Virus record (IMG/VR): IMGVR_UViG_3300005458_000017
Origin: an uncultured virus (IMG/VR IMGVR_UViG_3300005458_000017)
Taxonomy: Duplodnaviria > Heunggongvirae > Uroviricota > Caudoviricetes
DNA: 64,000 nucleotides
Direction: 5' to 3' (one strand)
Each line of letters begins with the position of its first letter. Positions within the stretch are counted from its first letter, which is position 1. Below, piece by piece: positions 1,151-62,833 of the stretch. The notes under the pieces are model-generated. The model was given only the letters and a program-made list of their open reading frames with translations, had not been told where the DNA came from and did no database searches. The position numbers and the translations under genes are program-made.

Positions 1151-2314
1151 ATGAATTTGAACCAAGCACGACGCGAGGCCACGAGATTGATCAATTCTGG
1201 TCAAGCCGTGATGTTCTCGTCTGGTTCGGGCATCGGCAAGAGCCAGACGGTCTACCAGATGTTCGAACAGATCAAGGCGCGCGACGCCGAGAAGAACATC
1301 ACATGGGGTTTCGGCACCATCTTTGCCGCCACGCAAACCCCGCCCGATCTGATCGGGTATCAGTTCAAGGGCGAAAGAGCGTTTCCCACGGGAGAAGTGG
1401 ACGCCGAAGGGCGTCCGGCCCTTCGTACCGTCACGGTAACCGATCCGAGCGTACCGCTGTGGATGATATCGACAGAAGGCAAGCCAGCATGGATGTACGA
1501 TCGCTTCTTCCTGTTTATCGACGAGTACGGCCAGGGCGAGGGCGACGTGAAGCGCGGCCTTGCTGAAATATTCCTCAATGGTGGCACGTCGCCGTGGTAT
1601 CTGCCGCCGGGTTCTGTAAGAGTTGCTGCAACGAACAAAGGGGTTCGTTATGGCGTGAGCAAGGACTTCGACTTCTGCATCGCCCGCCGCACGCTCTTGG
1701 AGATCGACGGTGACGTAGACGTGTGGCTGAGCTACGCCGACAAGCCTTACATCCACCAGGGCCGGCAATGGGTGACGATGCCCGTGATCAAGGCGTGGGC
1801 CGCGACCAACCCGCAAATCCTCTTTGAACAAGAGCCGAAGGATCAGGGGCCGTGGTGCAATCCGCGGCAGTTATGCGCCGTTGACCGGTACCTGCAAGTG
1901 ACATTCGAGGAGCAGGGCAACCAGGACGTGGATGCGCTGGCGATTTCCAGTATCGCCGGCACCATCGGAATGCCCGCCGCGCAATCGCTGATCAACCACC
2001 TGCAATTCCGACTTGAACTGCCGAGCTATGCTGACGTGGTGTCCGACCCGGACGGGACGCCGGTGCCGACGCGTGCCGATCTGCAAATGCTGATGGCCTA
2101 CGAGCTTGCGGGCTACACCAGGGCCGAAGACCTTGCCGCGTGCATCACCTACATCCAACGCCTGGAGAAGGTCGCCAAGGACATGGGTGTGACCTACATT
2201 TCTGCTCTGCTTCGCAGAGATTACAAGAACATCATCAACCAGCCGGCGATGCAGGGATGGATCAACAAGAACGCGACATTGATTTCGGTCATCCACGCGT
2301 TGAGCAGCAACTAA
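1151..2314 (+). CDS. MoxR-like AAA+ ATPase
   Basis: Walker A SGSGIGKS, Walker B FLFIDE, sensor VAATN, PRQ motif; vWA partner downstream. Confidence 0.85.
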   Translation: MNLNQARREATRLINSGQAVMFSSGSGIGKSQTVYQMFEQIKARDAEKNITWGFGTIFAATQTPPDLIGYQFKGERAFPTGEVDAEGRPALRTVTVTDPSVPLWMISTEGKPAWMYDRFFLFIDEYGQGEGDVKRGLAEIFLNGGTSPWYLPPGSVRVAATNKGVRYGVSKDFDFCIARRTLLEIDGDVDVWLSYADKPYIHQGRQWVTMPVIKAWAATNPQILFEQEPKDQGPWCNPRQLCAVDRYLQVTFEEQGNQDVDALAISSIAGTIGMPAAQSLINHLQFRLELPSYADVVSDPDGTPVPTRADLQMLMAYELAGYTRAEDLAACITYIQRLEKVAKDMGVTYISALLRRDYKNIINQPAMQGWINKNATLISVIHALSSN

Positions 2315-2529
2315 TTCCCGCGCGGGATAGGGGGTGTGCGGATAGCCTGTGGATCAACAGGACGGCACACCCCCGCTTACCGCCGCGGTAACAGGATCAA
2401 CGAATGCCGTTGCCAGATAAAATGCTGACGCCATTCGCTGGCCCTGTCGAGGACCTGCAAAGGTTGATCGACTGGAAATTGGGAAGCACGCAACACCTGC
2501 GGCGCTACAAGACGAGAAGAGGAGCAACC

Positions 2530-2817
2530 ATGCAACGGCAATTCACCATAGAGCTTCGCGTCGACTATGCTGACAACGAGAAGAACCAGGCCATGCGGCT
2601 GGCGTGCCAGCAAGCGGCACAGCACCTCAACGCGACGGCGGTATTGCTTTCGGACGGGCAGCGTCCGCAGATCGCCGTGTTCAGCGACGACTTCTATTCC
2701 GGACGCGAGGAGATCGAACTGGTCTCCGGCACGATCCAATCTGGATTAGATTCCATCGGCGGCGACGCCAACGACTCGCCGGTCAGCAATGAACTGCTGA
2801 ACGCGTTCGGTCAATGA
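2530..2817 (+). CDS. Hypothetical protein
   Basis: ATG at 2530 with AGGAG RBS inside ORF 2404..2817. Confidence 0.7.
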   Translation: MQRQFTIELRVDYADNEKNQAMRLACQQAAQHLNATAVLLSDGQRPQIAVFSDDFYSGREEIELVSGTIQSGLDSIGGDANDSPVSNELLNAFGQ

Positions 2818-3041
2818 AGGTCAGAGTCAACATCGGCGAGATACCAAGTGTAGAGCAGACGCGCTTCCGCTCGTTTGCCGAGAGATACTTACTTACGCGA
2901 GCGCCACATTGGCCCGTGGGTAAAGAAACAGAGATGGCGTGGGAAGCCACGCTGGATGCCAAGCGGTTCTATCGCATGATCGAAGCGCAGGGCAAGAACC
3001 TCAATGCGTTCATCAAGGAAGAGGAAGCTGCGCAACTGTGA
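2814..3041 (+). CDS. Hypothetical protein
   Basis: ATGA overlap with upstream gene. Confidence 0.65.
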   Translation: MKVRVNIGEIPSVEQTRFRSFAERYLLTRAPHWPVGKETEMAWEATLDAKRFYRMIEAQGKNLNAFIKEEEAAQL

Positions 3042-3242
3042 GTGACTTCACTGGCGAAGCAACCGGCAGACTACTACGGCGTGAATGGCGTAGACGCATC
3101 AGTAACGCCATCGTTCGCCACCGAGAGGATGTTCGACGCCGCAATATGATCGTCGCCGCTCCGATTGGAGCACCGGAAGAACAGTGGCAAGCGTACCAAG
3201 CGTGGTGTGACGTCCGACTGGCATATCTAAAACGAGAGAGGA

Positions 3243-4553
3243 GTGAGCTATATGACGACACCCCCCGAACCAGAAGAAAGCTCGCCGGATACTATCGAAC
3301 CATGTGGTCTGACGCCGCAGCAAAAGCAGCAGTGGGGCGACACCATGAGCCTCATGACGTGGACCTGTCCCGGGTTCCGTCATCTGTTCTACAAGCTCCT
3401 CGCCAACAACCGCGGCGAGATAGCAGCGGTGCCGAGCCGGCAAGTGCCGATCGCGGCGACTGACGCGCGCAACATCATCATCAACCCGGACACGTTTTTC
3501 AAGCTGTCCCTGAAGCAGCGGGTGTTCGCCATCGGCCACGAGATCATTCACAACGTCTTCGACGACGTGAACTTCCTGCATCGCTGCTCTAAGGCTGGAA
3601 CGGTCCTGATGAGCGACGGAACGACTCGTCCGTTCATCAACAAGATGATGCAGCACGCGATGGACTACCGCATCAATGCGCTCCTGGTTGACAGCAAGAT
3701 AGGTGAGCCGCTTCCCGGTATTTGTCTGGACCCTGAGATTGGCAAGGCCGACGACAGCGTGGTGGATATCTACAAGAAAATCTACGACGACGCTGAGTCA
3801 GACGGGCGTATCGTTCCCGGCAACAGCTTCGATCAGCTATTAACTCCCGGTGCCAGCACCGGGCAGACGCCCTCGCAAGCGCAGGCTTCGCGCAACCCGC
3901 AACAGTGGAAAGTTGAAACAGCGGCAGCGCAGCAACTCGAAGCCATGAAGTCGCAGGGCAAGATGGCGCACGCGTTGCAGCGCTTCTTCCAGCAAATACT
4001 GGAGCCCGTGGTTCCCTGGACCGAACATATCAAGGGCATCTTCAACCGCAAGGTGGGGTCGGGCACCTACAACTGGCGCAAGCCCGACAGGCGCTTCATC
4101 ACAAGGGATTTGTACATGCCATCGCGTTCCGGCAACGGCGCGGGCTGGGTAGTGGTGTGGGGCGACACGTCGGGCTCCATCGGCCAGGACGAACTCTGCC
4201 AGTATATGGCAGAACTCACCGAGATCATGGAGTCCTGTCAACCTAAGAGGCTGACAATATGCTGGTGCGACGCCGAGATACACCGCATCGACGAATTGGA
4301 AGAACCGGCTGACATGGATGCCCTCAAGGAGAGCATCGACGGCGACAAGATCGGCGGCGGCGGCACCAACATGCATCCGGTGCTGGACTGGATCAACCAG
4401 CAAAGCGAACGCCCGGAAATCATGATCGCGTTCACGGACGGCTATGTCACGTTTCCGGACGCCGAGCCCGACTTCCTGATGATCTGGGCCAGCACCACGG
4501 ACATGAAATATCCGTTTGGCGACGTGGTGCGGATCAACCCGGAGGGCGCGTGA
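3243..4553 (+). CDS. DUF2201-type metallopeptidase plus vWA domain protein
   Basis: AATD motif, HEIIH zincin motif, MIDAS DTSGS, GGGT, FTDG. Confidence 0.88.
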   Translation: MSYMTTPPEPEESSPDTIEPCGLTPQQKQQWGDTMSLMTWTCPGFRHLFYKLLANNRGEIAAVPSRQVPIAATDARNIIINPDTFFKLSLKQRVFAIGHEIIHNVFDDVNFLHRCSKAGTVLMSDGTTRPFINKMMQHAMDYRINALLVDSKIGEPLPGICLDPEIGKADDSVVDIYKKIYDDAESDGRIVPGNSFDQLLTPGASTGQTPSQAQASRNPQQWKVETAAAQQLEAMKSQGKMAHALQRFFQQILEPVVPWTEHIKGIFNRKVGSGTYNWRKPDRRFITRDLYMPSRSGNGAGWVVVWGDTSGSIGQDELCQYMAELTEIMESCQPKRLTICWCDAEIHRIDELEEPADMDALKESIDGDKIGGGGTNMHPVLDWINQQSERPEIMIAFTDGYVTFPDAEPDFLMIWASTTDMKYPFGDVVRINPEGA

Positions 4554-4787: not shown

Positions 4788-4798
4788 GGTGCTTTTTT
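4763..4798 (+). terminator. Intrinsic terminator
   Basis: GCCCTAGCTCG/CGAGCTAGGGT stem followed by TTTTTT. Confidence 0.75.
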
Positions 4799-4902
4799 GA
4801 AATTTCAACCCGCGAGCGTGTGCGCAGCGCAAGCGAAGCATATCGCGAGCAATCAACCAAGCGCGAGTGAAGCGCCAGCGCAACGAGAAAGGAAAAACCA
4901 AA

Positions 4903-5622
4903 ATGAGTTGGGGTAACAGAAATCGACAGCACCGACAGCCGAAAGAACCCGCGTCACTCGGCGACGTACGCGTTGCTAACGCGTGCGCCACGATCAACAG
5001 CATGATGATCAGAGCGGCCAACCTGATGGTGCCATACTCGCCATCGCGCGAAGCAGTGCTTCCGATGCTGTTCGCCGACGACACGTTAATAAAACTTCAA
5101 GCAGTGCGCGGAATGGTCGATCCAGCATATACGTCTTGCCAGTACCCCATCGCTGCTGACGTCGACCTGCAAATCAAGTTTACCGACGCGGCAGTGCCAC
5201 CCATCACACCGGAGTTCTTGTGCGTGCAGCCGGAACGAGCTAGCCCACTTCTGAATGCCGTCGAAGAGATCAGGGCGATCTATCTTCAGTACGAGAAGGT
5301 GAAACATGTGCTGCGCTGGATGAACCGCAACGCCACCGCCGGCGCCGTTCGTCACTATTGGCCGACCGTCTTGCAGCTATGTCCGAATGCTCCGGCGCTC
5401 AAGGAATTAACGAGCACGCCGACGCGGTTTGCAACACCGCGCAACATCGGCGAGATGCTGCAACTGATCCGGGATACGTCTGCAACGATGTCTGCATCCG
5501 TGATGCTTCCTGCGGATGCGACTTACCGGCCATATAAAGAACTGAAGCTGCGTTTCCGTACACGAACGGTCAGCGACGGCGTACATGCTTTCGCGACCGA
5601 CGAGATGAACATTAGCCTCTAA
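4903..5622 (+). CDS. Hypothetical protein
   Basis: Long ORF with AAAGGA RBS. Confidence 0.75.
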   Translation: MSWGNRNRQHRQPKEPASLGDVRVANACATINSMMIRAANLMVPYSPSREAVLPMLFADDTLIKLQAVRGMVDPAYTSCQYPIAADVDLQIKFTDAAVPPITPEFLCVQPERASPLLNAVEEIRAIYLQYEKVKHVLRWMNRNATAGAVRHYWPTVLQLCPNAPALKELTSTPTRFATPRNIGEMLQLIRDTSATMSASVMLPADATYRPYKELKLRFRTRTVSDGVHAFATDEMNISL

Positions 5623-5677: not shown

Positions 5678-7624
5678 TTGCCCAACCGGGTCCTGATTCT
5701 TGATTTCGAGACGTACTACGACAAAGAGTACTCTCTCAAGAAAATGCCGACACCGAATTATATCTTGGACCCCCGGTTCGAGACCATCATGCTTGCCGCC
5801 AAGGTGGATGACGGCGAGCACCAGATCATAGACGGGCCTGACGTGCCCGCGTTCCTGGCACAGTTCGATCCGAAGCAAACCACCACGGTCACCTTCAATG
5901 CGCTGTTCGATAACTCGATCCTGGCGTGGCGCTACGGATTCGTCCCCCACACCATGATCGACGCGATGGGCATGGCGCGTGCGCTATGGGGGCACAAGCT
6001 GCATCGCTTCTCCCTGAAGGAAATCTCCGAGTTCCTGGGACTGCCCGCCAAGCTCGACACCCTGATGAAGGTGGAAGGGTTAAACCGTGCAGCGATTCTT
6101 CAGGCGGGGTTGTGGACGCAGTTCTGCGAATACGCTTTACGTGATAACATAAATTGCGAGGGGATTTATCTCAAAGCATATCCCGAATTTCCCTGGGCTG
6201 AGCGCCGCCTGATGGACATGGTGTTGCGCTGCTGCGTCGAGCCTAGATTTCAGTGCAATATCCCCATGTTGACGGATCACCTGGTCGACGTGAAAGCCGC
6301 CAAGGCCGCGCTAATCCAAGATGCTGGGTCAATCGACACCAAGGTGATCATGTCAACGCCGAAGTTCAAAAAGGCGTTGGAGGATTTAGGCGTCGAAGTC
6401 GAGATGAAAATCTCGCCGACCACCGGCAAGGAAACACCCGCGTTCGCCAAGACCGACGAGTTCATGAATAACCTGCTGGAGCATAGCGACCCTATGGTCG
6501 CGTCGCTCGCAGCGGCAAGAGTGGGCCTCAAGAGCACGCTTGAGGAGACGCGCACTGAAAAACTCCTAAGCATCGCGTCATTGCCATGGGTAAGCAGCGA
6601 TGACGCACCCCTGATGCCGATCCCGCTCCGGTACGGCGCCGCCCACACTCACCGGCTGGGTGGCGACTGGGGCATGAACATGCAGAACATGCCGACCGTG
6701 CGCGGCAGCAAGGGGAAATCCAAACTGCGACTCTCGCTGGTAGCGCCGCCTGGCTACAACGTGCTGACGATCGATTTGGGTCAGATCGAAGCGCGCATGG
6801 TGGCATGGCTGTGCGGCTGCAAAACACTCCTGGAAGAGTTCGCCAAGTACGACGCCGGCGACAAGAGTTTCGATCCGTATAACCGCCTGGCATCTGCGAT
6901 CTTCGGGAGACCTGTTGATCGAAAATTGACTGGCACACCGGACGAGATCATGGGTTTCATTGGTAAGGGCGGCATTCTCGGGCTTGGCTACGTCTGCGGA
7001 AAAGACAAGTTCGACACCATGGTGACGCGCGGCGCGCGGGCGCAGGGCGTGGACATCAGCGTGGTTTACACCCGCGCTATCGGTGACAAAGCCGTCGACG
7101 TGTACCGTCGCCGCTATCACGAAATCCCGGCGGGCTGGAACAAGCTCAACCATATCGTTGCGACGTACTGGCTGAGTGGATCGGCATCGACGACGTTCGG
7201 GCCGGTCACGATTTCAAACGGCAGGGTTTTGCTGCCAAGCGGATTGTCGCTGAATTACGCCGACCCGCAGAGCTTTACGTCCGACACAGGTCGGACGGAA
7301 TATCGTTACCGCTACGGTAAGATGTGGCACCGGATGTACGGCGGAAAATTGCTTGAAAATATCTCGCAAGCGCTCGCTCGCATCATAGTGATGAACGCGG
7401 CCCTTCGGATTCGCGACCGCGGGCTTTACACGGTCAACCCTCGCGATTACTTGTTTTGTTTGCAAGCTCACGATGAATTGGTTTTCGTCGTCCGCGACGA
7501 AGAGCTAGAACAAGCCAAGCAACTCATTCACGCCGAGATGATCCGTGCACCTTCATGGGGGCGCGACATTCCGCTGGTAGCGGACGTTGGAGTTGGTCCT
7601 TCTTACGGAGAGGCAAAGACCTGA
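5678..7624 (+). CDS. Family A DNA polymerase (3'-5' exonuclease plus polymerase, no 5'-3' exonuclease)
   Basis: Exo I DFETY, FNALFD, motif A DLGQIEAR, motif B GKGGILGLGY, ENISQA, motif C AHDE. Confidence 0.95.
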   Translation: MPNRVLILDFETYYDKEYSLKKMPTPNYILDPRFETIMLAAKVDDGEHQIIDGPDVPAFLAQFDPKQTTTVTFNALFDNSILAWRYGFVPHTMIDAMGMARALWGHKLHRFSLKEISEFLGLPAKLDTLMKVEGLNRAAILQAGLWTQFCEYALRDNINCEGIYLKAYPEFPWAERRLMDMVLRCCVEPRFQCNIPMLTDHLVDVKAAKAALIQDAGSIDTKVIMSTPKFKKALEDLGVEVEMKISPTTGKETPAFAKTDEFMNNLLEHSDPMVASLAAARVGLKSTLEETRTEKLLSIASLPWVSSDDAPLMPIPLRYGAAHTHRLGGDWGMNMQNMPTVRGSKGKSKLRLSLVAPPGYNVLTIDLGQIEARMVAWLCGCKTLLEEFAKYDAGDKSFDPYNRLASAIFGRPVDRKLTGTPDEIMGFIGKGGILGLGYVCGKDKFDTMVTRGARAQGVDISVVYTRAIGDKAVDVYRRRYHEIPAGWNKLNHIVATYWLSGSASTTFGPVTISNGRVLLPSGLSLNYADPQSFTSDTGRTEYRYRYGKMWHRMYGGKLLENISQALARIIVMNAALRIRDRGLYTVNPRDYLFCLQAHDELVFVVRDEELEQAKQLIHAEMIRAPSWGRDIPLVADVGVGPSYGEAKT

Positions 7625-8488: not shown

Positions 8489-8493
8489 TTACC

Positions 8494-8700
8494 GTGACAG
8501 TAAAATCCGAGCGCGAGGCGCGACGCTACGCCGAGATGCAGCGCGGGCAGCAAGTCCTTGCACAGCACTATATCGCGCAGCGGTTCGATCCGGATTATGT
8601 GACACCGGATGGCTGGACCAACGAAGGGCCTGATATCACACCCGAGGAGCGTCGCCGGCGTGATGAGTACCGGAAGAACCTTCCGAACGGGAGGTGGTGA
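8494..8700 (+). CDS. Hypothetical protein
   Basis: GTG start after AGGAGG; fills the gap in the operon. Confidence 0.55.
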   Translation: MTVKSEREARRYAEMQRGQQVLAQHYIAQRFDPDYVTPDGWTNEGPDITPEERRRRDEYRKNLPNGRW

Positions 8701-9895: not shown

Positions 9896-10204
9896 TTGAA
9901 TCTGGAAGAACTAATCCGCGATCGCGCCACTAAAGGCGAGATGGTGCATTTGTCGCTCTGGCATGAAATATCCAGTGGGCTGTGGTGCGCTACCTATGCG
10001 CCGGCCCACGAGTTCGGCAACAGTGTCGCCCGCGACAAGGACCCGGTGAAGGCGTGCGAAGCGGCGATCACCGCACCGAAAACCAAGCGGCGCGTTACCG
10101 CGACGGTAAGAGAGCCGATCGTCGATCACCTCGCCGGTGGGCCGCGCGGTCCGCTCGAACCGGAGAAGTCCGACACGCTAGATAGCTGGTTGCCGCGCGC
10201 ATGA
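9896..10204 (+). CDS. Hypothetical protein
   Basis: GGAGG RBS with TTG start; ATGA overlap downstream. Confidence 0.6.
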   Translation: MNLEELIRDRATKGEMVHLSLWHEISSGLWCATYAPAHEFGNSVARDKDPVKACEAAITAPKTKRRVTATVREPIVDHLAGGPRGPLEPEKSDTLDSWLPRA

Positions 10205-10563: not shown

Positions 10564-10660
10564 GCAACTGGCTGGGATCATGGCGCACCTGGAACGGCAC
10601 CCAGACGACGTGCTTAGCAAGGCGCGCGTGGCTACGATCAACGAATTACTGCGGCGGTAA
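10481..10660 (+). CDS. Small hypothetical protein
   Basis: AGGAG before GTG; helical basic product. Confidence 0.45.
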   Translation: MKSEENTPEVGRAQGRSTKASNIKKLRRQLAGIMAHLERHPDDVLSKARVATINELLRR

Positions 10661-10662
10661 CA

Positions 10663-10929
10663 ATGTGTTTTGGCAACAAAGGTGGCGGCTCGCGAACGGG
10701 TCGCAAATACGTCGAGCAGATCACGGTCGGTCTGACCCCGGAAGATTTTGCATACCTGCGTGGGATCAGAATGACCTCGCTGGCGGAAGCTCCCCGTCAG
10801 TGTATAGCGCGTTGCAAACAAGAGGATACATTATGCGGAAAGTCTGTACTGCCTGCGGCACGTTGCACGTCGTATCCGACGCCAGATCATACGCCAGTGT
10901 CACCTGCGGCCTATGCGGAAGCCAATTGA
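10663..10929 (+). CDS. Possible ribbon-helix-helix (CopG/Arc-like) small DNA-binding protein
   Basis: EQITVGLTPEDFAYL...SLAEA.RQCI strand-helix-helix pattern; palindrome copy ends 3 nt upstream. Confidence 0.45.
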   Translation: MCFGNKGGGSRTGRKYVEQITVGLTPEDFAYLRGIRMTSLAEAPRQCIARCKQEDTLCGKSVLPAARCTSYPTPDHTPVSPAAYAEAN

Positions 10930-11428: not shown

Positions 11429-13009
11429 ATGCTGAATAGCACGTTTGGCCATTGCATCATCTCGAAGGCGAACAGGGCTGTGATTGCGCCGCTGACTGGC
11501 GCGACCAACAACATGTTCCCTGATGCGCAGAAAATAACCCACCAGGAACAACCGTTCCTTGTCACGCCGCACGGGCTGCGTGAGACCATCATGCTGCGAC
11601 ATCTGGGTTACGAAGTCCCGAACCCGATGCTCCTATACTATGACTGGCGCGGCGGTACGCCGTTCTCGGTGCAGCGTGCGACCTGCGACCTGATGTCCAC
11701 CGCGGCGCGCTGTTACGTGCTCAACTCGATGGGCACCGGCAAGACCAAGAGCGCGCTGTGGTCGTGGGATTACCTCCACGGTAACGGCCTTTGCGGAAAA
11801 ATGCTGGTTGTCGCCACGCTCTCGACGTTGAATTTCGTCTGGGGCCGCGAGGTGTTTGCCACGCTGCCCAACCGTCGCGCGACGATCCTGCATGGCACCA
11901 AGAAGCAGCGCCTGGAGCGGCTTGCCGAGGACGCCGACATCTACATCATCAACCACGACGGGTTGCGGACCATCCAGGCGGAACTATCACAGCGCACCGA
12001 TATCGACGTGCTCTGCCTCGACGAGCTTGCGGTGTACCGCAATCACGGTAGCGGATTATCGAAGGAGATGCGCAAGTTCGCCGAGCGCTTCAAGATCGTG
12101 TGGGGCCTCACCGGGCGCCCGATGCCGAACGAAGTCACCGACGTCTGGGCGCAGGCCAAGATCATACGCCCCGAAAGCGTGCCGAAATTCTTCCGGCACG
12201 CGCAGGAACTTTTGATGAACCGGCTCAACCAGTTCAAATACATCCCCAAGCCCGGCGCCGTCGAAGCCGCCTTCAAGATGCTGCAACCGAGCGTGCGGTA
12301 TGCGCTCGACGACGTGGTTGAGTTGCCCGAGGTGGTCTACCGCACGGTCGATGTGCCACTCTCTGCGAAGCAGAAGAAGGTCTACGACACTCTCGCAAAA
12401 GAGTTCAAGGCCGAGGTGGATAGCCAGGCCATCACGGCGGTCAATGCGGCAGTCGCCATGGGCAAGCTGCTGCAAGTCTCCGGCGGCTGGGTCTATGCCA
12501 AGCCTGTGGGGTCGATCGCGCTCGACGCCAAGCCACGGCATGACATGCTGGTTGATCTGATCGAGGAGAACGCCCGCAAGGTGATAGTCCTCGTGCCCTT
12601 TAGGCACGCTATTGAGGGACTTACGGAAGTCCTCAATAGCGCCGGGATCGAGCACGCCGTGGTGCATGGCGGTGTCCGGGGTCGCGACGAAATCTTCAAC
12701 CTGTTCCAGAACACCGACAAATACAAAGTGCTGTTGGCGCACCCGGAATGTCTCGCACATGGGCTCACGCTCACCGCGGCTGACACCATCATCTGGTACA
12801 TGCCGATCACCTCGCTGGATATCTACGAGCAAGCCAACGCACGGATCACGCGTTACGGCCAGAAGCACCGGCAACAGGTGCTGCACCTGCAATCAACTTC
12901 TGTTGAGAAGAAAATCTACACGCTATTAAGGGGCAAGCAAAAAATCCAGGACTCGCTTCTGGAGATGCTGTCCGAGGCAACCGACAACAGGAAGGTCTCG
13001 TCCCTGTGA
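11429..13009 (+). CDS. SNF2-family helicase
   Basis: MGTGKT, LDEL, LTGRP.PN, HGLTLTAA, QANARITRYGQ. Confidence 0.92.
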   Translation: MLNSTFGHCIISKANRAVIAPLTGATNNMFPDAQKITHQEQPFLVTPHGLRETIMLRHLGYEVPNPMLLYYDWRGGTPFSVQRATCDLMSTAARCYVLNSMGTGKTKSALWSWDYLHGNGLCGKMLVVATLSTLNFVWGREVFATLPNRRATILHGTKKQRLERLAEDADIYIINHDGLRTIQAELSQRTDIDVLCLDELAVYRNHGSGLSKEMRKFAERFKIVWGLTGRPMPNEVTDVWAQAKIIRPESVPKFFRHAQELLMNRLNQFKYIPKPGAVEAAFKMLQPSVRYALDDVVELPEVVYRTVDVPLSAKQKKVYDTLAKEFKAEVDSQAITAVNAAVAMGKLLQVSGGWVYAKPVGSIALDAKPRHDMLVDLIEENARKVIVLVPFRHAIEGLTEVLNSAGIEHAVVHGGVRGRDEIFNLFQNTDKYKVLLAHPECLAHGLTLTAADTIIWYMPITSLDIYEQANARITRYGQKHRQQVLHLQSTSVEKKIYTLLRGKQKIQDSLLEMLSEATDNRKVSSL

Positions 13010-13588: not shown

Positions 13589-13637
13589 CTTACCGTCACG
13601 GTAAAAATGCGGCGCGTGCCGCCTCTAACCCGAAAGA

Positions 13638-14790: not shown

Positions 14791-17700
14791 GTGCCTGACT
14801 GGGGTGCCGTTCAGAACTTCTTGGGAGCAGTCGTGCCGTGGCCGGGGGAAAATCCCGGCCACGTCGGTTTGCATTACTCCATGGTCAACCCCAGGGCCGG
14901 CGAGAAGGGCCAGGAACCCCTGCTCAAGGGCATGGGCTGGCCATTCAGGGACCTGAGCAGTTTTGTCCAGCGCGCCGCATGGATCAGTACGACCACTAAC
15001 TTCAAGGATGTCTGGTTCTGCACCTCGCGGCAGCGAGAGGCGTCGACAAATACCAAGGGCAAGCCGAAGGCGTTGCGTCGTCACGCCAACGCGATGGACT
15101 TGAAAGCGATCTGGATCGACGCCGACGTCAAGCCCGACGACACCGTCGGCAAACACTATACGTCGATGCAGGAGGCCTGGGGGGCGCTCTGTGCGTTTAG
15201 AATCAAAGCGGGCCTTCCCCAGTTCAGCGCCGTGGTAAACTCCGGCGGTGGGCTGCACGCCTACTGGATCAACGACCGCGCACTCACCTCGGACGAGTGG
15301 CGCCCCTACGCGACGGGTTTGAAAGCGCTGCTGCTCCAGGAGGGGGTGAAATGCGACGCCGGCCTCACCACCGACGACGTGCGGCTGTTGCGCGTGCCGG
15401 GGACGTATAACCACAAATATAATCCGCCGCGGGAAGTCGAGCTATTACCCTTGCCGCTGGCGATTTACAACTTCGAAACCTCGCTGGCGTTTCTCACCAC
15501 GATCGCACCGGTACCGGCGAGTACCACCCAGGCCAGCGTTTTCGACGCAGCAAAATTCCAAGGTGTCAAGCCGATCCTTGCAGCGACGCCTCACGACAAT
15601 CTCAGCGATGGGATTGAAAAATCCCCGGGGATTTTTCTCGATCCGCGACCGGTCTTTGCGGGTTGCGCGTTCATGCGCAACGCGTTCGCGAACGCCGGCG
15701 CCGATCTGGACAACCCCTTATGGAATCTCTCTGTGCTCGCCACCACTTTCATGGAGAACGGCAATGCATTCGCCCACCAGATATCTCAAGGCCACGCGAC
15801 CTATACCCCGGCTGATACACAGGCGCTCTACGATCGGAAGGTGGCTGACCGGGCTGACCGAGGAATTGGATACCCAAGCTGCGCGACCATTGCGGGGAAT
15901 GGCTGCAAATCTTGCGCGGCGTGCCCGCACTTCGCGAAAGGCAAGTCACCGCTCAATCTGACGAAGCCGCTGGTTACCGCGACGGTAATCGCGCCGGCGG
16001 CACAGGCAACGCCCGCGCAAACATCGTTACATCTGCCGTCTGGCTACGACCTTGATCACGAGGGTTTCATCTGTCTTGTGGCCGAGAAAACCACAAAGAC
16101 CGGCAGCGAGAGCACGCACCTGATCCGGTTGTTCACGTCCAAGCTCGATATGCCGTGGTCGCAGAAAAATCCTGACGGGATTCACTGCCGCACGACCTAC
16201 GACAAGGGTAATTATTTCATGGCATTCCTGCCGTGGGAGAAGATGGGCGCCAACGATCTGTTTAGAACTTTCGCCCAGCAAAAGATCAAGATCGCAGCGG
16301 CGACCCCATTGGTAAGGGACTTCTATATGGCCTGGCTCACCTATCTGCACGAGTTGGAAGCGGCGCAGGAGACACTGCCTTACGGCTGGTACCGCGACCA
16401 GGGCAACATCAGGGGCTTCGCCTATGGCGGGATGCTGTTCAAGGATGACGGCTCGACGGGTCCCGCCGGCATCACCCAGGGGTCCTTGCGGACGATCTAC
16501 ACCACCACCGGGCAGATGCAGCCGTGGTACGACGCCTGGGAGTGGCTGAAGGTGCAGAAGCGCCCCGAGTTGGAAGCGGTGATCGCGTCTGCCTTCGCCG
16601 GCCCTTTGATGCCGCTGCTGGGCAAGGCGGGCGGCATGCTGTCGATCGAAGGTGAAAGCGGCTCGTGTAAAACCCACGCCATGGAACTCGGCATCGCCGT
16701 ATGGGGAAGCCCGCAGAAGGGTAAAGAGATCAGCAGTTCGACCAAGAACTCGATCATGAACAAGGCGGGGCAGTTGAATAACCTTCCGATTTTTTGGGAC
16801 GAGATCACCCAGGACAATCCGAAGGTGCGAAACGAGGTGCTGGCGGCGCTGATGGAGTTCACCAACGGCATTGAAAAAAGCCGGATGCTGGACGGCGAGC
16901 GTCAGCAAGGGCGCTACTCCTGGGAGAGCATGACGGTCATCTCCTCGAACTGTAGCTTCTGGGATTTCGTTGTCCAGAAACAGAAGACCCACACCGGCGG
17001 CTTCAACCGCGTACTCGAATATAATATCCGTCGCCTGCCGCCGGACGCCGGCATCCTGACGTCCTCTACCGAAGCCGATATCGCCCTCAAGAAGTTGAAC
17101 TACAACTTCGGGCATCTCGGCGCTGAGTACGCCAAGTTCCTGGCGATGAACCATGCGCGTGTTGCCGACGAGGTCAGGGCGATGGGGGTGCTGGTCGAGC
17201 AGGAACTGACCATCGAACAGGAGGAGCGCTACTGGTCGTCGCTGGTCGCCGCGCTGCTATGTGGCGCGAAATACGCGAACGAGGTCTGCAAGGTGGGGTT
17301 CGATGAAATAACCCTGAAGGATTTTTTATACCAGCGTGTGCTCGACGGTCGCGCCCGACGTAACCGCGACCTGCGCCCGGCGGCGGCGCAAGACTCGGTA
17401 GAAGACATCCTGACCAGCTACCTCAAGGAACGCACCAACCAGACAATCTGGACGGACTACACGCCGTCTCGCCCCGGTCATTTCGGCGGGGTCAATGTTT
17501 TGCGCGAACCGCCGGTATCCAACAATTTCGGCATCAACGTGCGCTGGGATGTCACCTCGCGCAAGATGATGATCAGCCGGCCTAACTTCAACGCCTGGCT
17601 TACCAACAAGGAGTTAGCGATCAACGAGACGCACGACAGCCTGGTGAAGAACTACGGCATGGTGATTCAGCGCATCACGCTTGCTGCCGGCACGCGGCAT

Positions 17701-19281: not shown

Positions 19282-19336
19282 CGGCGATCTCTCGGCTGTT
19301 ACCGCGACGGTAAAAACCGGCCCCTTAAAACTCGAT

Positions 19337-24526: not shown

Positions 24527-24588
24527 TTAACGGGACGGTAAGAACCCCAGGGCTAAAATAGAATTACTCGATCCCAGAGGAGGGGAAG

Positions 24589-24925: not shown

Positions 24926-25186
24926 TTACGTTGGCGACACGAAGTGCATTGCCGAGATCGTACGATAGGCCCGCTTACGCGGTTTCCTAATTTTGGCGAC
25001 CCACGCATCCAGTTCTTGTACCGGGTACACGAGGTTCCCGTTCTCACGGCGAAACTTCGGACCCTTCCCGCGTTTAGCGAGTGCAGCCAACGCCTTGGCT
25101 CCGAGAACCATGCCGTGAACGTCTGCTAGATATTTTCCGGCCGTACTTCGAAGTAGGAATGCCGGCCAACTTTTTTCAGTGTTCAT
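24926..25186 (-). CDS. Excisionase/AlpA-like HTH protein
   Basis: A..YL, LA..GKGPKF...G...YP..ELDAW. Confidence 0.7.
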   Translation of the reverse strand: MNTEKSWPAFLLRSTAGKYLADVHGMVLGAKALAALAKRGKGPKFRRENGNLVYPVQELDAWVAKIRKPRKRAYRTISAMHFVSPT

Positions 25187-25203
25187 GCCGCTACATATAC
25201 GCG

Positions 25204-43388: not shown

Positions 43389-43637
43389 TTACTCGTTTCT
43401 CGCGGGCGGTTGCAGTGGGGATTTGAGGGCGTGGCATTCCCGGAACAGGCGCAGGAACGCGAGGCATTGCTTCGCTCGACCTTGCATGTTCAGGATTTGA
43501 TCCTGCGGCGCGTCGGTTACCGCCACGGTAATTTCGTTCGTGTAGGCAGCGAACGTCTCAACGAACTGCTCGAACCCTTCAGGGTCGGCATTTCGGAGTC
43601 TCAACGCGAAATGACTCAGAACATCAGTGGATTTCAA
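43389..43637 (-). CDS. Conserved head-region protein
   Basis: QGRA motif; coupled start. Confidence 0.6.
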   Translation of the reverse strand: MKSTDVLSHFALRLRNADPEGFEQFVETFAAYTNEITVAVTDAPQDQILNMQGRAKQCLAFLRLFRECHALKSPLQPPARNE

Positions 43638-54140: not shown

Positions 54141-55289
54141 CTAGGCGGCTTCTCGGCGCGTGTCGGCGAAGTCCTGCCACGACACCCACGGCTTCTCTTC
54201 AGCGAGCGGCGTGAGTTGTTTCTCAAGGTAGACCTGCCAGTGCGCAGTCAGTCCATGTTCCGGATGGGTAAACCAAAGCGCCTGTGACGGTCGCGAATAG
54301 GGGGCGCGCAGCACGAGATGGGCGAACTCGTCGTATCCTTTGAGACTATTGTTGACGATGAGTCCCGGCAGGGTGATGTACTGGTGCCAGTGCCCAATGA
54401 GGAGCGTGTCGAAATCGCGACCGATCTGAGCCTCAGACCGGTGTGTCTTGAGAGTGCCGCGCATGATCGGACCCAAAGCGCCGATAATCCCATCGCCACC
54501 CTTAGTACCAAGACTGTCACCATGAGTAAGAAGATAGCGATGACCAAAAATATTGAAAGCGCAGTCAGCAGTTTCGGGTATTGAGAACTGGACATGCTTG
54601 CTCCTTCGGAAGTGGCGGGCGACACCGCAATAGACATTCCACTCGTGGGAGGTGAACACGCGCTCTTTCATCTGCATCTTCTTGGTGGAGCGACCGTGGT
54701 TGCCGACGACGCACGGCACAAAGAGTTTGCCGAAGCTGGTCGCCATCATTTCGAGGGCACCCGAAATCAGATCAATCAAGTCCTCGATCGCTTGCTGCGT
54801 GGTGCGATCATTGGTCTTCATCAGTTCCTCGTGAATATCACCGCCAAGCATGTCGCCGCCAAGAGCCACAATACAGCCGGGATATGTGATCTTCGCTCGA
54901 CCCATGTGGTTAAACGCGAGATCGACGGTTGTCTCCGCGAGACACTTAATCCGGCGTCTGGCGACGGTCTTGTCGTAGGTGTTGATGCCAGGCATTCGGA
55001 CAACTTCCGAGTAGTGCCAGTCGCTCCAGATCGTCGCAGGTACGCCTCTGGCTCCCGCCCGGCCCTCACGTACCGTCCATTCCGGGGGTTCCGGATCATA
55101 GGCGGCGATCTTGTAGATGTTCTCGCGGACGGTCTTGGCATCGTCCTGTTCCTTGGTGAGTTGCTCGATCAGCTTGCGCGCCGCAAGAATCTCCGCGTTC
55201 TTCTTCTTGATGATATCAGTCGCGTCACGAAGCTGATCGTCGACGGTTTTCAAAGGTACTGCCATTTCTAAATCTCCAGGCGCGCTCAC
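54141..55289 (-). CDS. Calcineurin-like metallophosphoesterase
   Basis: SDWH, GGD, GNHG, THGD, GHWH. Confidence 0.88.
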   Translation of the reverse strand: MSAPGDLEMAVPLKTVDDQLRDATDIIKKKNAEILAARKLIEQLTKEQDDAKTVRENIYKIAAYDPEPPEWTVREGRAGARGVPATIWSDWHYSEVVRMPGINTYDKTVARRRIKCLAETTVDLAFNHMGRAKITYPGCIVALGGDMLGGDIHEELMKTNDRTTQQAIEDLIDLISGALEMMATSFGKLFVPCVVGNHGRSTKKMQMKERVFTSHEWNVYCGVARHFRRSKHVQFSIPETADCAFNIFGHRYLLTHGDSLGTKGGDGIIGALGPIMRGTLKTHRSEAQIGRDFDTLLIGHWHQYITLPGLIVNNSLKGYDEFAHLVLRAPYSRPSQALWFTHPEHGLTAHWQVYLEKQLTPLAEEKPWVSWQDFADTRREAA

Positions 55290-55327: not shown

Positions 55328-56107
55328 TTACCCCGAGGAGTGCTTTTCGCCCGCAACCTTCTCGCGCGTCCCTTCGGTGATGAGTCGAAACGACGTTGTC
55401 CCTCCCGCCACTTCGCCGTCTGGCGAAATCGTCTGGCCGGCTCCATCCCCCGAGGAGTTAGCTGAAAGCGGCTTTGCGCCACCCGACGTTGAATTTTCCG
55501 GCGTAATATCTTTATGTCCAACGACGAGCTTCTCGTCTGCGCCAAGATTGATAGTAATCGTAAATTTTTCGCCGGGGCTGCCACCGGCCACGTCTCGCTC
55601 GCCGACACCAGCAACCTTAGCAATGAGCTTAGCCGCCTCGACCACGCCGGGGAGCCCTTCGCTCGCGTTGCCCATTCGGGTAAGCAGTAGTGGAAGCTTA
55701 TCTTCGAAACCGGCGGCAGCAAGCAGCTTGATGCGGTCCTGCGTGTTGCCGGCCGCGTTCCACTCGATGGTCGCGTGGTGCAGCGCCTGCTTGAAGAACT
55801 CGTGGTGTTCGACGAGGAAATCGAATTGCGTCCGGTTGATTTTATAATCCGCAAGTATGTCATGGGTCTCCCGGATATTCTGCGCGATCTCCCGCGCCAT
55901 CCGCGCCAGCAGGTGAACCGTGAGTTCTTTCGGAAGCTGCACCAGCGCTTTTGCCGCCTGCACACCGGCCGGCGTGAGACCCGTTTGCGTGGGCTCTACG
56001 TGGTCTTCAGGAATTACCGCCGCGGTAATTTCTTCCGCCGGCGGCTTCCACACCGCATCCGGATTGGTGATTAGGGCTTCAAAGCCAGTATCGACAAGCT
56101 CGTCCAT
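55328..56107 (-). CDS. Probable terminase small subunit
   Basis: Helical HTH-like core, F.I.INLG tail; position upstream of terL. Confidence 0.55.
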   Translation of the reverse strand: MDELVDTGFEALITNPDAVWKPPAEEITAAVIPEDHVEPTQTGLTPAGVQAAKALVQLPKELTVHLLARMAREIAQNIRETHDILADYKINRTQFDFLVEHHEFFKQALHHATIEWNAAGNTQDRIKLLAAAGFEDKLPLLLTRMGNASEGLPGVVEAAKLIAKVAGVGERDVAGGSPGEKFTITINLGADEKLVVGHKDITPENSTSGGAKPLSANSSGDGAGQTISPDGEVAGGTTSFRLITEGTREKVAGEKHSSG

Positions 56108-56475
56108 CAGTGAATCGCATCGTCCGACCACGGGCACTCCTGGAGGCGGCGCGCGTGGTTGGCGGCGCCGGCAGAGTAGTGCTCCACCAGGTGGGTGACG
56201 TTATCCATCGTTCGTTTAAGTATCGCGGCGTCAAGTTCTCCGCGGCCGAGCAACCCCTGAATGTTGACGATAACCCTGTACTGCGAAGCGTAGGAGTGCA
56301 GCGCCAGCGCTACATGCGCGATCCCCATAAATTCGCTGCGTGTGGTCTTGCGATCGTATGCGTCGATCAAGAGCATCGTCGCGCCGTACACGAGACGCGT
56401 CACGGCGTCCGGCGCGGGCTTAGTCTCGACCAGGTCGGCGATCAATGCTTCATCGAGAACCGGATCGGCCATCAC
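56107..56475 (-). CDS. Hypothetical protein
   Basis: Coupled ORF. Confidence 0.6.
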   Translation of the reverse strand: MMADPVLDEALIADLVETKPAPDAVTRLVYGATMLLIDAYDRKTTRSEFMGIAHVALALHSYASQYRVIVNIQGLLGRGELDAAILKRTMDNVTHLVEHYSAGAANHARRLQECPWSDDAIH

Positions 56476-57077
56476 GCCGCCTCGGCAAGGGGAGCTACGT
56501 CCACACCCCCGTCGGGGTACATCACGTGGCTCGTCAACGCGTGGACAGCACGGTCACGCTCGGCCGGTTCCATGCGATATCCGATACCCCAGATCGTTTT
56601 GATCTTGACGTCGAACGGCGTCAGCTTGCGGCGCAGGTGACAAATAATGACATCGACCATCTTGAGGTCGGTCTCGTCGCGGTTGGGGTCGCGAAGCGTT
56701 TCGATAACCTGATGAAGCTGCTCCTTGGTGACTTCGGACCGCTTGAGCAGAACCGCGAGGATCGACGATTGCAGGCGGGTGGTCTTGAAGACGATCGAGC
56801 AAAGGAATTTCAGTTTCTCGTCGTCTTCTAGCACATTGTGCTGTGGAAGTGCTCGTTTCGCGCGGCCCGATCCGGGCGGCCAATCATCCTTCGGTATCTC
56901 GGTGATCGTGCCACGGTGCATCGCGTCGTGGAGAATTTCATATACTTCGTCGCCGGGAATTTTGCAGGCCCGGGCGATCGCACGAACCGGTATTCCTTCA
57001 TCTGCCAGTCGTACAACAACCTTCCTGGTGTCAGCGTTTGTTGGAGTTTCTAGGGGGACAACAACGGGTGATGACAT
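56472..57077 (-). CDS. CtrA-like OmpR/PhoB winged-helix protein with N-terminal HTH and no receiver domain
   Basis: VTKEQL...E.D.KMVDVIICHLRRKL.....IKTIWGIGY resembles CtrA ..TKE...ELKIIDVFICKLRKKL...IETVWGRGY. Confidence 0.85.
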   Translation of the reverse strand: MSSPVVVPLETPTNADTRKVVVRLADEGIPVRAIARACKIPGDEVYEILHDAMHRGTITEIPKDDWPPGSGRAKRALPQHNVLEDDEKLKFLCSIVFKTTRLQSSILAVLLKRSEVTKEQLHQVIETLRDPNRDETDLKMVDVIICHLRRKLTPFDVKIKTIWGIGYRMEPAERDRAVHALTSHVMYPDGGVDVAPLAEAA

Positions 57078-58588: not shown

Positions 58589-58869
58589 TGAAAGTCCTCC
58601 ACCGTATCGTCGCCGATGTAGATCGTGGGCTCAGTGCCAAAGTCCAGTCCGATTACGCTATACGCCGGCGCGCCGGTGCCGGGGATCGGATCGGAGACGA
58701 ACTGGTTGGCGACATCGAAAGAGGTGTGCCCCAGGAAGGTGCAGGCGAACCAATGCTGGAGCGGCGCCAGTATTCGTTTCCACCTTGGCACCTTGCAGGG
58801 GAAGGCTGGACCGCAGAGCAGGTCCTCTTTCCAAGTCAGGTCCACGATGCCGTCGCGAGCAATCTTCAT
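58468..58869 (-). CDS. Hypothetical protein reading through attP
   Basis: ATGA overlap with int stop; ends at TGA right after the tRNA CCA. Confidence 0.4.
   Translation of the reverse strand: MKIARDGIVDLTWKEDLLCGPAFPCKVPRWKRILAPLQHWFACTFLGHTSFDVANQFVSDPIPGTGAPAYSVIGLDFGTEPTIYIGDDTVEDFQIRAKSVRNAPTQKKNIGVSNASRPFTRERSKVRSLVRPP
58471..58519 (-). other. attP core: 3' half of tRNA-Val(CAC)
   Basis: TCCCTT-CAC-ACGGGAGAGGTCCAAGG-TTCGATC-CCTTGTGCGTCCACCA has anticodon arm, T arm and CCA but no 5' acceptor strand or D arm; lies downstream of int. Confidence 0.88.
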
Positions 58870-59993
58870 CTGCGCAGTCCTCTCGGTAGTTTCACTCTCG
58901 GCAGTAGATCAGCTTGCCGCGCCTCGTAGCTCGCAACCGTGTGCGCGTAGCGCGAAGCGCTCTCGGCATTCTTCCACCGCTTGGTGCGCACCAACCCTTC
59001 CGTGTCGAGCCCGCCGTAGCGCGTCATCCAGGTGCCGTAGGTGTGACAGAAGATATGGAAGCCGCCTTCGCGCGCGGGGAAGGACAAGCCGGTCCGCTTC
59101 ATGGCGTCCGCCAGCATGTCGCGAAGGTGGCCGCCCGGATGAAAACGAAACAGCCGCGCAGCGGGATCACGCTTCAGCCACGGCTTGCCGGCGTCATCTT
59201 GGGGACGGTGGCCCACGCTCTCGGGCCGAGGAGGCTGCGCCCGGAACGCTTCAACCAGCACGGGGGGTAAGTGCACGGGTCGCGGCTCGCCGTTCTTGGT
59301 GTCAGGGATGTAGAGGATCGGCGCCGGGTTACCGTGACGGTCACAAGTATCCAGCTTGAGGTCGCGAACATGTGACTTCAGCGGTTCGCTCAACCGTTCG
59401 CCGGTGTAGAGATACGTCATGCACAGGAGTCCGAACTCGGCATCGATGTGGTAACAGTTCTCGATCAACGGACGCGCCTGCTCCGGCTCCAGCCAGCTTT
59501 GCGATTTTTTACCGCGCCATCCTACAGGCCGCTTGATCTCCATCGTGTTGCCGGCGCGCTTCAGGACGGCAGAGACGGGCGTGTAGAAATTGCGGTTTTT
59601 AGTCGCCGCGGGAGCGTCAGGCATGATCGCGTTGGCGCAGTTGTCGATCATGATCTGGTCGATCTCCTTGACCAGCTTGTCCCGCAGCGCGAACTCGCCT
59701 TCGAGTTCGATAACTGCGCCGAGGTACTGCCCGTCGCCGCCGGCGCGGAGGTATGCAAGTGTCGCTTCTGCGAACGTGGGTGCACGCTTTACTTCCTTGT
59801 CGCTTGGCTCAGCGCTGGGGCTGCTTGCATACTCACCACGTTCGATGGCGCGCTCCCAGGTGGTGATAACACCGCGCGCTTTTTGCTTGTCAGTATGCTT
59901 CGTAGAGCGGTCAACGTAGACTCCCCGGTGGGTGCCGCGCCCGCGGTAGTACGGATTCCTTTTGGGGTCCGGCGGAATGAGTTTAATCGACAT
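58866..59993 (-). CDS. int: Tyrosine integrase
   Basis: YTGER.SE, TKNG, HIFCHT (HxxR position), W, RY; next to attP. Confidence 0.9.
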   Translation of the reverse strand: MSIKLIPPDPKRNPYYRGRGTHRGVYVDRSTKHTDKQKARGVITTWERAIERGEYASSPSAEPSDKEVKRAPTFAEATLAYLRAGGDGQYLGAVIELEGEFALRDKLVKEIDQIMIDNCANAIMPDAPAATKNRNFYTPVSAVLKRAGNTMEIKRPVGWRGKKSQSWLEPEQARPLIENCYHIDAEFGLLCMTYLYTGERLSEPLKSHVRDLKLDTCDRHGNPAPILYIPDTKNGEPRPVHLPPVLVEAFRAQPPRPESVGHRPQDDAGKPWLKRDPAARLFRFHPGGHLRDMLADAMKRTGLSFPAREGGFHIFCHTYGTWMTRYGGLDTEGLVRTKRWKNAESASRYAHTVASYEARQADLLPRVKLPRGLRR

Positions 59994-61760: not shown

Positions 61761-61792
61761 AAAAAAGCCCGCACCGTGTGAGGGTGCGGGCT
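61761..61792 (-). terminator. Intrinsic terminator
   Basis: GCCCGCACC/GGTGCGGGC stem plus TTTTTT on minus strand. Confidence 0.8.
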
Positions 61793-61819
61793 GCGTAGAA
61801 CAGTTCGAGTGTGGAAAGG

Positions 61820-62047
61820 TTACACCGGCGGGATGGTCGCGTTCAGCGAAACCTTGATATCGTCGCCGACGTTCATGAAGCCATCGGTCGAGGCGATCAG
61901 GCGATTGACGGTGCTTTCCGGCAACCCCTTCTCCTTCGCCTTGGCGAGACCCGACTTGGAAGGCTGGGCGGCTTTCCGGGCTTCCTTACTCACGTCGATG
62001 GTCAGGGTCAGCAGATTGCCTTCCATTTTTGCACTCACGTTAGGCAT
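61820..62047 (-). CDS. Small hypothetical protein
   Basis: GAGGGGAG RBS; LTLTIDVS...SKSG...LIAST.G. Confidence 0.7.
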   Translation of the reverse strand: MPNVSAKMEGNLLTLTIDVSKEARKAAQPSKSGLAKAKEKGLPESTVNRLIASTDGFMNVGDDIKVSLNATIPPV

Positions 62048-62189
62048 TGTACTCCCCTCAAAGTTGTGCCGATGGCGGGATGCTGATTGGTCAACCTTGC
62101 CGCGTCGGACACCCTTTGCGCACGGTGCAGGTGAATCGCGCGAGCACATCGCGCGCGTAAGCCTGGTCACGAAACCACGTCCTAAAGGT

Positions 62190-62635
62190 TTTCTCTTGTA
62201 TTTAGATACCTTTCGCTCTTGTATTTAGATACCTTTTAGGGCGTGACTAATGGTCGGGAGCTTGACTAATCGATTTTACTTGGATGTAAATAGTTGAAAT
62301 ATTTCACCTTTTGCCTGATTTTTAAGTCAAATAGTCAAATAGACAAGACTTTTTGAGGGACGGTGGGCAGATCGCAGCCTTACAGTCGGCAATAAAGTTT
62401 CGCCGAATAGCTAAATAGTAATTTTGATTCTTAAATATAAGATTGAATGAAAAATCAATGGGTTACAAGGTGGCAAGGTGAATGTTCTTGTTTCTCCCCT
62501 GCTTAACACTTTTCGACCCTATCTGGAACTTTTAGCCCCCGTTTTGCCACCCGACCCTCTAAAACCCTTGTCTATTTTACTAGTTGACTAATTACACGTC
62601 CGTGATTTCGCGTGATTAGTCAAATAGTCAAACAC
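62190..62635. other. AT-rich non-coding region with direct and inverted repeats; candidate replication origin or divergent control region
   Basis: 21-bp tandem repeat, many TAGTCAAA/TTGACTA units, long imperfect inverted repeat. Confidence 0.6.
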
Positions 62636-62833
62636 CCAAACCACCTCACCTTAACGAGCTTTAACACTTTCCAACTCCTCACCTTATGGGGCGCGTTCGA
62701 CGCGGCGCTTTTGCCGCGCGCCGTTCCCCCGTCGGGGCGAACTCAACTCGCGGTTGTCGGCGAATTACCGTCCCGGTAAGCGCCTCCAACTGCCGCCGCT
62801 GATGCGTCGGCTAACCCTGCTGAGGAGCAGCCC

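Follow-up and report, generated by a model that had tools for sequence, protein, structure and literature searches.

The systems closest to the one considered here have been described in mycobacteriophages. In Cluster A, the helix-turn-helix (HTH) repressors of L5 (gp71) and Bxb1 (gp69) recognize 24–34 genome-wide stoperators, at which a block to transcription elongation has been proposed; according to the accessible part of that study, these are asymmetric 13-mers, oriented with transcription and mainly intergenic, with a consensus that differs between lineages and goes along with heteroimmunity (PMC3029335). Cluster O phages, reported to lack an integrase, carry 34 copies of a 17-bp dyad split by 3 bp, about a third of them within genes; the accessible portion of that account does not tie the dyads to promoters and assigns them neither a function nor a binder (PMC4351075). 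We describe here a network of sites built on the palindrome TTACCG-N3-CGGTAA in a 64,000-nt stretch of DNA from an uncultured virus (IMG/VR IMGVR_UViG_3300005458_000017; hereafter the window, meaning the whole stretch) and in its relatives. The sites are a real, widespread set, co-evolving across a phage family, and their likely reader is a phage-encoded protein, P4. The network would work like stoperators, looks like the Cluster O dyads and is a member of neither class.

As in Cluster A, the copies are many (19 in the window, 8–58 per genome) and the consensus is lineage specific. Unlike stoperators, the sites are perfect dyads, and among 665 of them in 29 genomes, with the motif defined genome by genome at our own choice, 321 lie deep in genes and 272 are intergenic or at gene edges; the candidate reader P4 has no HTH match, no HTH gene tracks the sites, and a gene pair for an AAA ATPase and a vWA-metallopeptidase is attached to the system. 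With the Cluster O dyads, as far as the accessible description goes, the sites share the 3-bp split, the partly intragenic placement and the independence of promoters, whereas sequence and host group are unrelated and the motif here diversifies and tracks a gene module. A further likeness is to the repressor operators of phage epsilon15 (NC_004775.2), which are dispersed and have the same outer word, TTACC-N5-GGTAA. The 11 epsilon15 sites have AT-rich spacers, lie outside genes and cluster near the gene for an XRE-type HTH repressor; unlike these and the Rep operators of SPC32H, 12 of the 19 window sites are inside genes and the shortest gap is 551 bp. The epsilon15 portal and capsid have no phmmer match in the window, the best phmmer hit to its Rep protein has an E value of 2.9, and HTH_3 gave no match in G001, the IMG/VR record nearest to the window; the likeness is probably convergent.

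The palindromes and their evolution

To judge from PHROG matches to a family-A polymerase, helicase, primase, terminase, portal, capsid and long internal virion proteins, the window is a podovirus-type phage genome of about 64 kb. It contains 12 perfect and seven one-mismatch copies of the palindrome and two further copies with two mismatches (5180 and 23305), and a scan of the window found no perfect copy with a spacer of 0–2 or 4–8 bases. Dinucleotide shuffles (n = 100) gave a mean of 0.04 copies and a maximum of 1 against the 19 observed. In codon-preserving shuffles of the 82 called genes (n = 300), perfect sites averaged 0.047 (maximum 2) against 8 observed, and sites with at most one mismatch 0.63 (maximum 3) against 12; since shuffling synonymous codons nearly never yields sites, the encoded proteins do not account for them. 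The spacer reads Y-N-R in 17 of 19 sites and Y-[CG]-R in 16. These results bear out the initial annotation of this DNA, which had listed at least 19 copies, all recovered where it placed them, had put about seven at gene starts or junctions, had described the spacer as mostly Y-N-R, had argued that selection acts on the DNA rather than the protein, and had proposed codon-shuffled controls.

By gene calls, seven sites lie at junctions or edges. A perfect copy at 2377..2391 separates the AAA and acidic-protein genes of the module described below; 8489..8503 (one mismatch) lies immediately 3′ of a stop codon; 10646..10660 (one mismatch) and 62765..62779 (perfect) are intergenic; 13590..13604 (perfect) occupies the junction preceding gene 13647, which has a site at most 42 nt away in 15 of 28 genomes; 19299..19313 (perfect) is intergenic, downstream of a 1729-aa virion gene; and 24527..24541 (one mismatch) adjoins the start of that gene. 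The other 12 lie deep in genes. Single-mismatch copies fall in the AAA gene (1425..1439), the helicase (11770..11784, where RHph_TM3_14A uses the same codon), 25204-26733 (26124..26138) and the integrase (59329..59343). Perfect copies fall in the DNA polymerase (7306..7320, at the same codon in five further genomes shown), 9896-10204 (10095..10109), the primase (15974..15988, synonymously converted in the motif-switched genomes labelled GG and TG), the 1729-aa virion gene (22702..22716), the virion gene 30062-32803 (32461..32475), 43389-43637 (43517..43531, synonymously converted in the GG genome), a glycosyltransferase gene (47552..47566) and 55328-56107 (56014..56028); the last gene, previously taken for terS-like, matches only a PHROG family of no assigned function. 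Density is uneven: the first 19.3 kb hold 10 sites, the 36-kb virion block 6 and the last 8.7 kb 3. A sigma-70 scan of positions 1–20000, which is weak for this host group, returned 7 matches against 6.2 expected, none touching a site.

Related phages carry the network in their own versions, which answers the earlier suggestion to look for conservation: the sites are family-wide and lineage specific. G001 has the same 19 sites, and the nearest cultured phages are the Rhizobium phages RHph_TM3_14A, TM27A, TM27B and TM29 (polymerase 41%). Among 20 records reached through the capsid, seven, fragments or whole genomes, have 4–23 copies of the window word, and others have words of their own. A de novo search found TTACGG-N3-CCGTAA in G006 (18 copies), TACTG-N3-CAGTA in G005 (15 copies) and GTTAC-N7/8-GTAAC with an inner AG in G009; G008, G026 and G028 have TTACCG with 2- or 3-base spacers, RHph_TM3_14A has 32 copies of TTAC-N8-GTAA and 14 of TTAC-N7-GTAA, and the versions in relatives include TTACCG, TTACGG, TTACTG or GTTACAG with N3, TTACCT-N4 and TTGATC-N4. 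A survey of 111 partly redundant loci with an ATPase homolog, each at least 7 kb long, left about 8 without an enriched dyad, L324 and L422 alone having none at all; L384, motif-less at first sight, has degenerate sites. Distant members use the arms TTGATC-N4, TTAGTAC-N2, TTAAC-N6, ACTAC-N1/2, ACTAT-N2 and CTACTT-N4, and G017, whose sequence ends just before the module, has a TAC-N6-GTA variant (27 vs 6.5). Some dyads were set aside: those of the ACCGG/CCGGT type in relatives most likely reflect coding repeats of collagen-like proteins, that of G033 belongs to a pentapeptide repeat, and the "attL/attR" marks of RHph_TM3_14A have a different sequence. Several collagen-like tail-fibre genes are present in the window itself (35954-38650, 47673-48753), and such repeats probably cause false dyad signals in relatives. 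The 44-kb phage G030, which has no module, carries five operator-like CGCAA-N5-TTGCG dyads, four of them clustered (3463-3742, 11071).

The sites are phage-specific and not a host repeat. Absence from the host chromosome was another check proposed at the outset; five bacterial assemblies (about 30 Mb; the window's own host is not identified) gave a single perfect copy of the window word, and the far-clade word falls on the phage contig in 5/6 cases in a Bradyrhizobium assembly and in 36/36 and 3/3 cases in two metagenome-assembled genomes. The literature searched, mostly outside subscription papers, yielded nothing on these sites, P4, a reader, or RHph_TM3_14A/TM27A.

How the sites change suggests how they are read. 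In the 10 genomes with the window motif, 157 of 187 sites have the consensus, 28 are changed in one arm and 2 in both arms without pairing, so that no site (0/187) shows a compensatory pair. This pattern supports reading as double-stranded sequence and is that of dimer sites, in keeping with the binding sites for one dimeric protein predicted from the sequence. Many intragenic sites occupy an identical codon position across several genomes. In the commonest reading frame the motif base that varies falls on the wobble position, and in the lineages GG, TG and AG the same sites have been rewritten synonymously in both arms. The polymerase site is read in another frame, in which a motif switch would alter the protein; in G005, G006 and G027 the peptide is kept and the site is erased by synonymous changes.

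The 272 intergenic or edge sites of the 29 genomes compare with 89 expected, a threefold excess. Of the 335 non-coding sites, 288 have co-directional genes on both sides, often follow a stop codon immediately and share no flank consensus. Sites do not cluster: in 13 of 14 related genomes, which are not independent, the shortest gap exceeds that of random placement at P < 0.05, and in near-clade genomes it measures 412–1045 bp. The early arm is densest, and sites thin out over the virion genes, with gaps of up to 11–13 kb.

A gene module and its candidate reader

The genes that accompany the sites lie mostly at the left end of the window, on the + strand. P4 (419..1135) is a 238-aa, basic, predicted all-helical protein; next come a MoxR-type AAA ATPase with visible Walker A and B motifs (1151..2314; phrog_1297, with distant matches to N4-like ATPases, two of them annotated MoxR-like), a 95-aa acidic protein with an isoelectric point (pI) of 4.2 (2530..2817, start set by alignment), a protein combining a metallopeptidase (HEIIH) with a vWA domain (DTSGS) and matching Pfam DUF2201_N and DUF2201 above cut-off (3243..4553), and P5, of no assigned function (4867..5622). 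A calcineurin-like metallophosphoesterase recognized by phrog_284 and its motifs lies at 54141..55289 on the − strand. Of the gene families compared, P4, AAA and vWA alone occur in every motif-bearing genome of the near (15/15) and far (8/8) clades and in no motif-poor one (0/6), a count from which G017 was excluded; the acidic protein, P5 and the metallophosphoesterase follow the sites in part. The last occurs in 15/15 near, 0/8 far and 0/6 motif-poor genomes and also in ~44-kb phages without the motif; by its distribution it tracks the module in the near clade alone and is not required. A tree of 29 genomes built from five core genes places the six motif-poor ones at four positions and rejects their monophyly (approximately unbiased test, p 8.2e-5), which argues for repeated loss of sites and module. 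The weak sites of two of them, G007 (9) and G010 (5), are read as relics. Close to the polymerase, module-less G007 (L104:5791-6432), G010 (L105:4255-4947) and G016 each encode a GP88 protein (PF17338). G016 and L371 also carry 4–5 copies of TTAA-N7-TTAA, which we take to be a CtrA site and a hint of an alphaproteobacterial host. In a divergent clade, a ~310-aa gene without a Pfam match adjoins the ATPase gene (L329:11427-12347 and homologs).

Several properties of P4 make it the most plausible reader, and we consider it likely that it binds the palindromes. It has 304 representative homologs at E ≤ 0.001, its Atlas matches are nameless viral clusters, and Pfam has no family for it and none shared among 86 homologs. 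Its homolog in RHph_TM3_14A is EVB41_028 (27% identity, E 3e-13 in a direct comparison); tblastn of P4 against cultured phages gave nothing at E ≤ 1, and a P4 search of genome contigs gave no locus. G074 (L323), with a CTACTT-N4-AAGTAG motif, has two P4 paralogs. The AlphaFold2 model is all-helical, with a predicted local distance difference test (pLDDT) score of 90.8 (95.0 for the N-domain). Foldseek found no PDB match for the P4 models at E ≤ 0.001, which does not prove the fold new; the best VIA matches (Z 7.0 over 51 residues of the C-terminal hairpin, root-mean-square deviation 1.2; Z 5.6 over 129 residues, deviation 4.6) are not trusted, and no HTH match was obtained. P4 is predicted to be a homodimer: its dimer model scores 0.61, a level that 20 of 30 solved pairs but 1 of 23 single chains attain, against 0.00 for the best control, with at least 88% of contacts common to runs and pLDDT at least 81. 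The modelled interface comprises residues 12–52 and 65–85 and the C-terminal hairpin and leaves free helix 88–105, in which N89, Q90, K92, S95 and R98 are near-invariant and which is altered in the motif-switched GG, TG and AG genomes and in far genomes. In three motif-switched genomes, P4 ranks second of 37 families in excess divergence, behind the acidic protein (AAA, 0.11; vWA, 0.08; HTH, −0.02). P4 has a pI of 9.5 in the window and at least 8.5 in 19 of 25 cases, and a site lies at most 80 nt upstream of its start in 10 of 21 measurable genomes, versus 2 of 27 for the capsid gene. Where AAA and vWA occur without a P4 match, as in L324, L422 and the N4-like phiAxp-3, dyads are absent as well; the phiAxp-3 result covers 45 of 73 kb, and 44 of 64 kb of KPP25 also showed no such dyads.

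The binders proposed by the initial annotation fared less well. The protein encoded by 56472..57077, with HTH and OmpR-type winged-helix domains, was rejected as reader: each of the six motif-poor genomes has it, and its putative recognition helix is the same whatever the motif. The product of 10663..10929 has matches in just two other genomes and that of 24926..25237 in none. The 56472-57077 gene is kept, with its invariant helix, in 22 other genomes and perhaps encodes a late-gene regulator. Elsewhere in the window, a pentapeptide-repeat coding stretch is cut at its 5′ end (1-110; open reading frame 9-254), methyltransferase and glycosyltransferase genes lie within the virion block (44418-47648), as in the accessible description of Cluster O phages, and could serve capsid glycosylation, and a DNA methyltransferase (phrog_757) is encoded at 60960-61658.

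Repression, coating and other explanations

Evidence for lysogeny is found in part of the family. Of 44 genomes, 10 have a Pfam tyrosine integrase; every one of them carries the module and none is among the six motif-poor. Seven of these 10 have no HTH_3 match, and HTH_3 is above cut-off in only 4 of the 44, one of them motif-poor. A prophage at 48.8–108.4 kb of a 239-kb contig, with an integrase at its end, holds 11/11 of the contig's TTAC-N7/8-GTAA sites, none falling in the roughly 60 kb of flanking sequence. Family members that are true prophages have P4 and sites and no XRE repressor; since such a state requires a repressor and no other conserved candidate exists, P4 may fill that role. 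The earlier idea of a lysogeny switch thus survives in the form of repression by P4, and the window's own integrase falls outside it. That gene (58866..59993, − strand; phrog_1) is a recent acquisition that bears one site; it has no tblastn match in any of 28 relatives and is therefore not part of the site system. Its H-x-x-R box is altered to H-I-F-C, Pfam failed to detect it, and the enzyme may be inactive or atypical. The gene labelled integrase in RHph_TM3_14A (EVB41_076; L238 27240-30323) belongs to the primase family of window 14791-17844 and is probably misannotated.

We favor, at a probability of about 45% for the whole, a reading in which the palindromes are docking sites of a phage-encoded homodimer, most likely P4, which would act as a non-HTH master repressor and silence the genome with a roadblock about every 3 kb, at junctions and in long genes, the motif of each lineage conferring its own immunity; the AAA ATPase, the vWA-metallopeptidase and the small acidic protein would together strip off or cleave P4 and so let lytic growth begin. 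The parts differ in strength. If P4 binds, repression is the somewhat likelier outcome, and sites inside operons fit a roadblock better than promoter operators. Action of the ATPase/peptidase on P4, suggested by gene order and co-occurrence, is a tentative proposal. An AAA ATPase beside a vWA protein with an N-terminal metallopeptidase recalls the MoxR-vWA pair of group 2.2 jumbo phages, proposed in the accessible text to aid virion assembly (PMC7824862), and of N4-like phages; unlike the jumbo-phage pair, the genes here belong to the early/replication arm, beside P4, and are tied to DNA sites. The acidic protein, which diverges along with P4, could be an adaptor or, as a guess, a DNA mimic, by analogy with SroF-Sar of SPbeta-like phages, a non-HTH repressor with specific small DNA-mimic antirepressors as far as the accessible part of the preprint describes it (bioRxiv 10.1101/2025.11.27.690993); SroF has an integrase-like fold, to which P4 gave no match.

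A number of observations weigh against repression by P4 or against P4 as the reader. Pfam tyrosine integrases are missing from 34 of 44 genomes, one of which has a serine recombinase, and these nevertheless carry 15–50 sites; the absence of integrase from the six motif-poor genomes is not significant alone. The acidic protein outranks P4 in the divergence test, which rests on three switches, and a tree-level test, which omitted G002, L379, L319 and G074, does not single P4 out (label changes: P4, 25; polymerase, 25; AAA, 26; vWA, 26). Six of 25 P4 proteins are not basic (pI 5.2–7.0). The window itself has no site directly upstream of its P4 gene, and a nearby site is more frequent at gene 13647 (15 of 28). 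The divergent genomes G067–G070, with other dyads, have AAA and vWA, and P4 was not detected in them; a fast-changing ~270-aa open reading frame takes its place, with a site directly upstream, and its homology to P4 is not demonstrated (hhalign P 0.05%; 19% for L421). Finally, AAA/vWA pairs also occur in site-less phages and may have another job.

Since most genomes carry no integrase, the sites could conceivably serve to silence a non-integrated genome, to time the lytic programme or to provide a protective coat. The last of these, in which P4 binds as an architectural or protective lytic coat that marks or shapes self DNA (nuclease shielding, organisation of replication or packaging) and is loaded or stripped by the AAA/vWA-peptidase, is rather unlikely. 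It would suit the scarcity of integrases, the many sites deep in genes, the wide and unclustered spacing, hosts without the word, a metallophosphoesterase that accompanies the module throughout the near clade and is missing from motif-poor genomes, and the site already borne by a recently gained integrase; the dense early arm, the long gaps over virion genes, the excess at gene junctions, the absence of the nuclease from the far clade and the persistence of four lineages after module loss speak against it. A reader elsewhere in the module (AAA/vWA complex, acidic protein or P5), with P4 a mere partner, is improbable: AAA and vWA are the sole families in all 27 motif-bearing genomes compared, G067–G070 included, the acidic protein has the largest motif-linked divergence, and P5 is basic (pI 9.1), but AAA and vWA are acidic, match no DNA-binding domain and occur without dyads, the small protein has a pI of 4.1–5.1 across the family, and P5 shows a motif-linked divergence of −0.07 and is detected in 2/8 far genomes.

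Two further explanations are very improbable. Promoter operators of an epsilon15-type XRE/CI repressor, or of the 56472 HTH protein, are suggested by the epsilon15 sites, 7 of the 11 being annotated as repressor sites, and by the HTH and Trans_reg_C matches of the 56472 product. This idea is already largely refuted by the lack of an epsilon15 repressor homolog, the rarity of HTH_3, the unchanging helix of a 56472 protein that motif-poor genomes retain, the half of sites inside genes, and a family motif that goes far beyond TTACC. A host protein, or hairpins in single-stranded DNA or RNA, could explain why some genomes accept two spacer lengths; against both stand the lack of compensatory changes, close relatives that switch both arms genome-wide, the near-absence of the word from bacterial assemblies and site loss that follows phage-gene loss. 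The parS-like system raised by the initial annotation is not favored either: unlike parS/ParB/ParA, the sites are dispersed with no centromere cluster. The signature lysine of deviant Walker A ParA ATPases is missing from the linked ATPase sequence, which matches N4-like MoxR-type ATPases instead. As regards a ParB fold for the reader, the P4 models have no PDB match, with no ParB family search made. The phiC31 repressor c family (PF25746) was found in 0/5 genomes at E ≤ 1, a 0.79 Atlas lead being the sole pointer to it.

A possible switch and its meaning

A broader reading is conceivable, although we regard it as doubtful: P4, AAA, vWA-metallopeptidase and acidic protein might constitute a new switch in which a sequence-specific dimer of new fold coats the genome, chromatin-like, at co-evolving palindromes and is stripped by an ATP-driven remodeller-protease; a large family of phages infecting Rhizobiales and other bacteria could then persist silently or mark their DNA as self, in most cases without integrating. 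Ever since the Cluster O mycobacteriophages, it has been a puzzle what reads dyads spread over a whole genome. The family described here, with natural motif switches, four losses that arose independently and a Rhizobium phage in culture, offers a direct test centred on a single named protein. The synonymous rewriting of sites in essential genes is a clean case of genome-wide protein-DNA co-evolution. If P4 reads the sites, it would represent a new DNA-binding fold with a built-in specificity series, and if the ATPase/peptidase acts on P4, the widespread phage MoxR-vWA-peptidase pair would have a substrate for the first time, and a function other than virion assembly.

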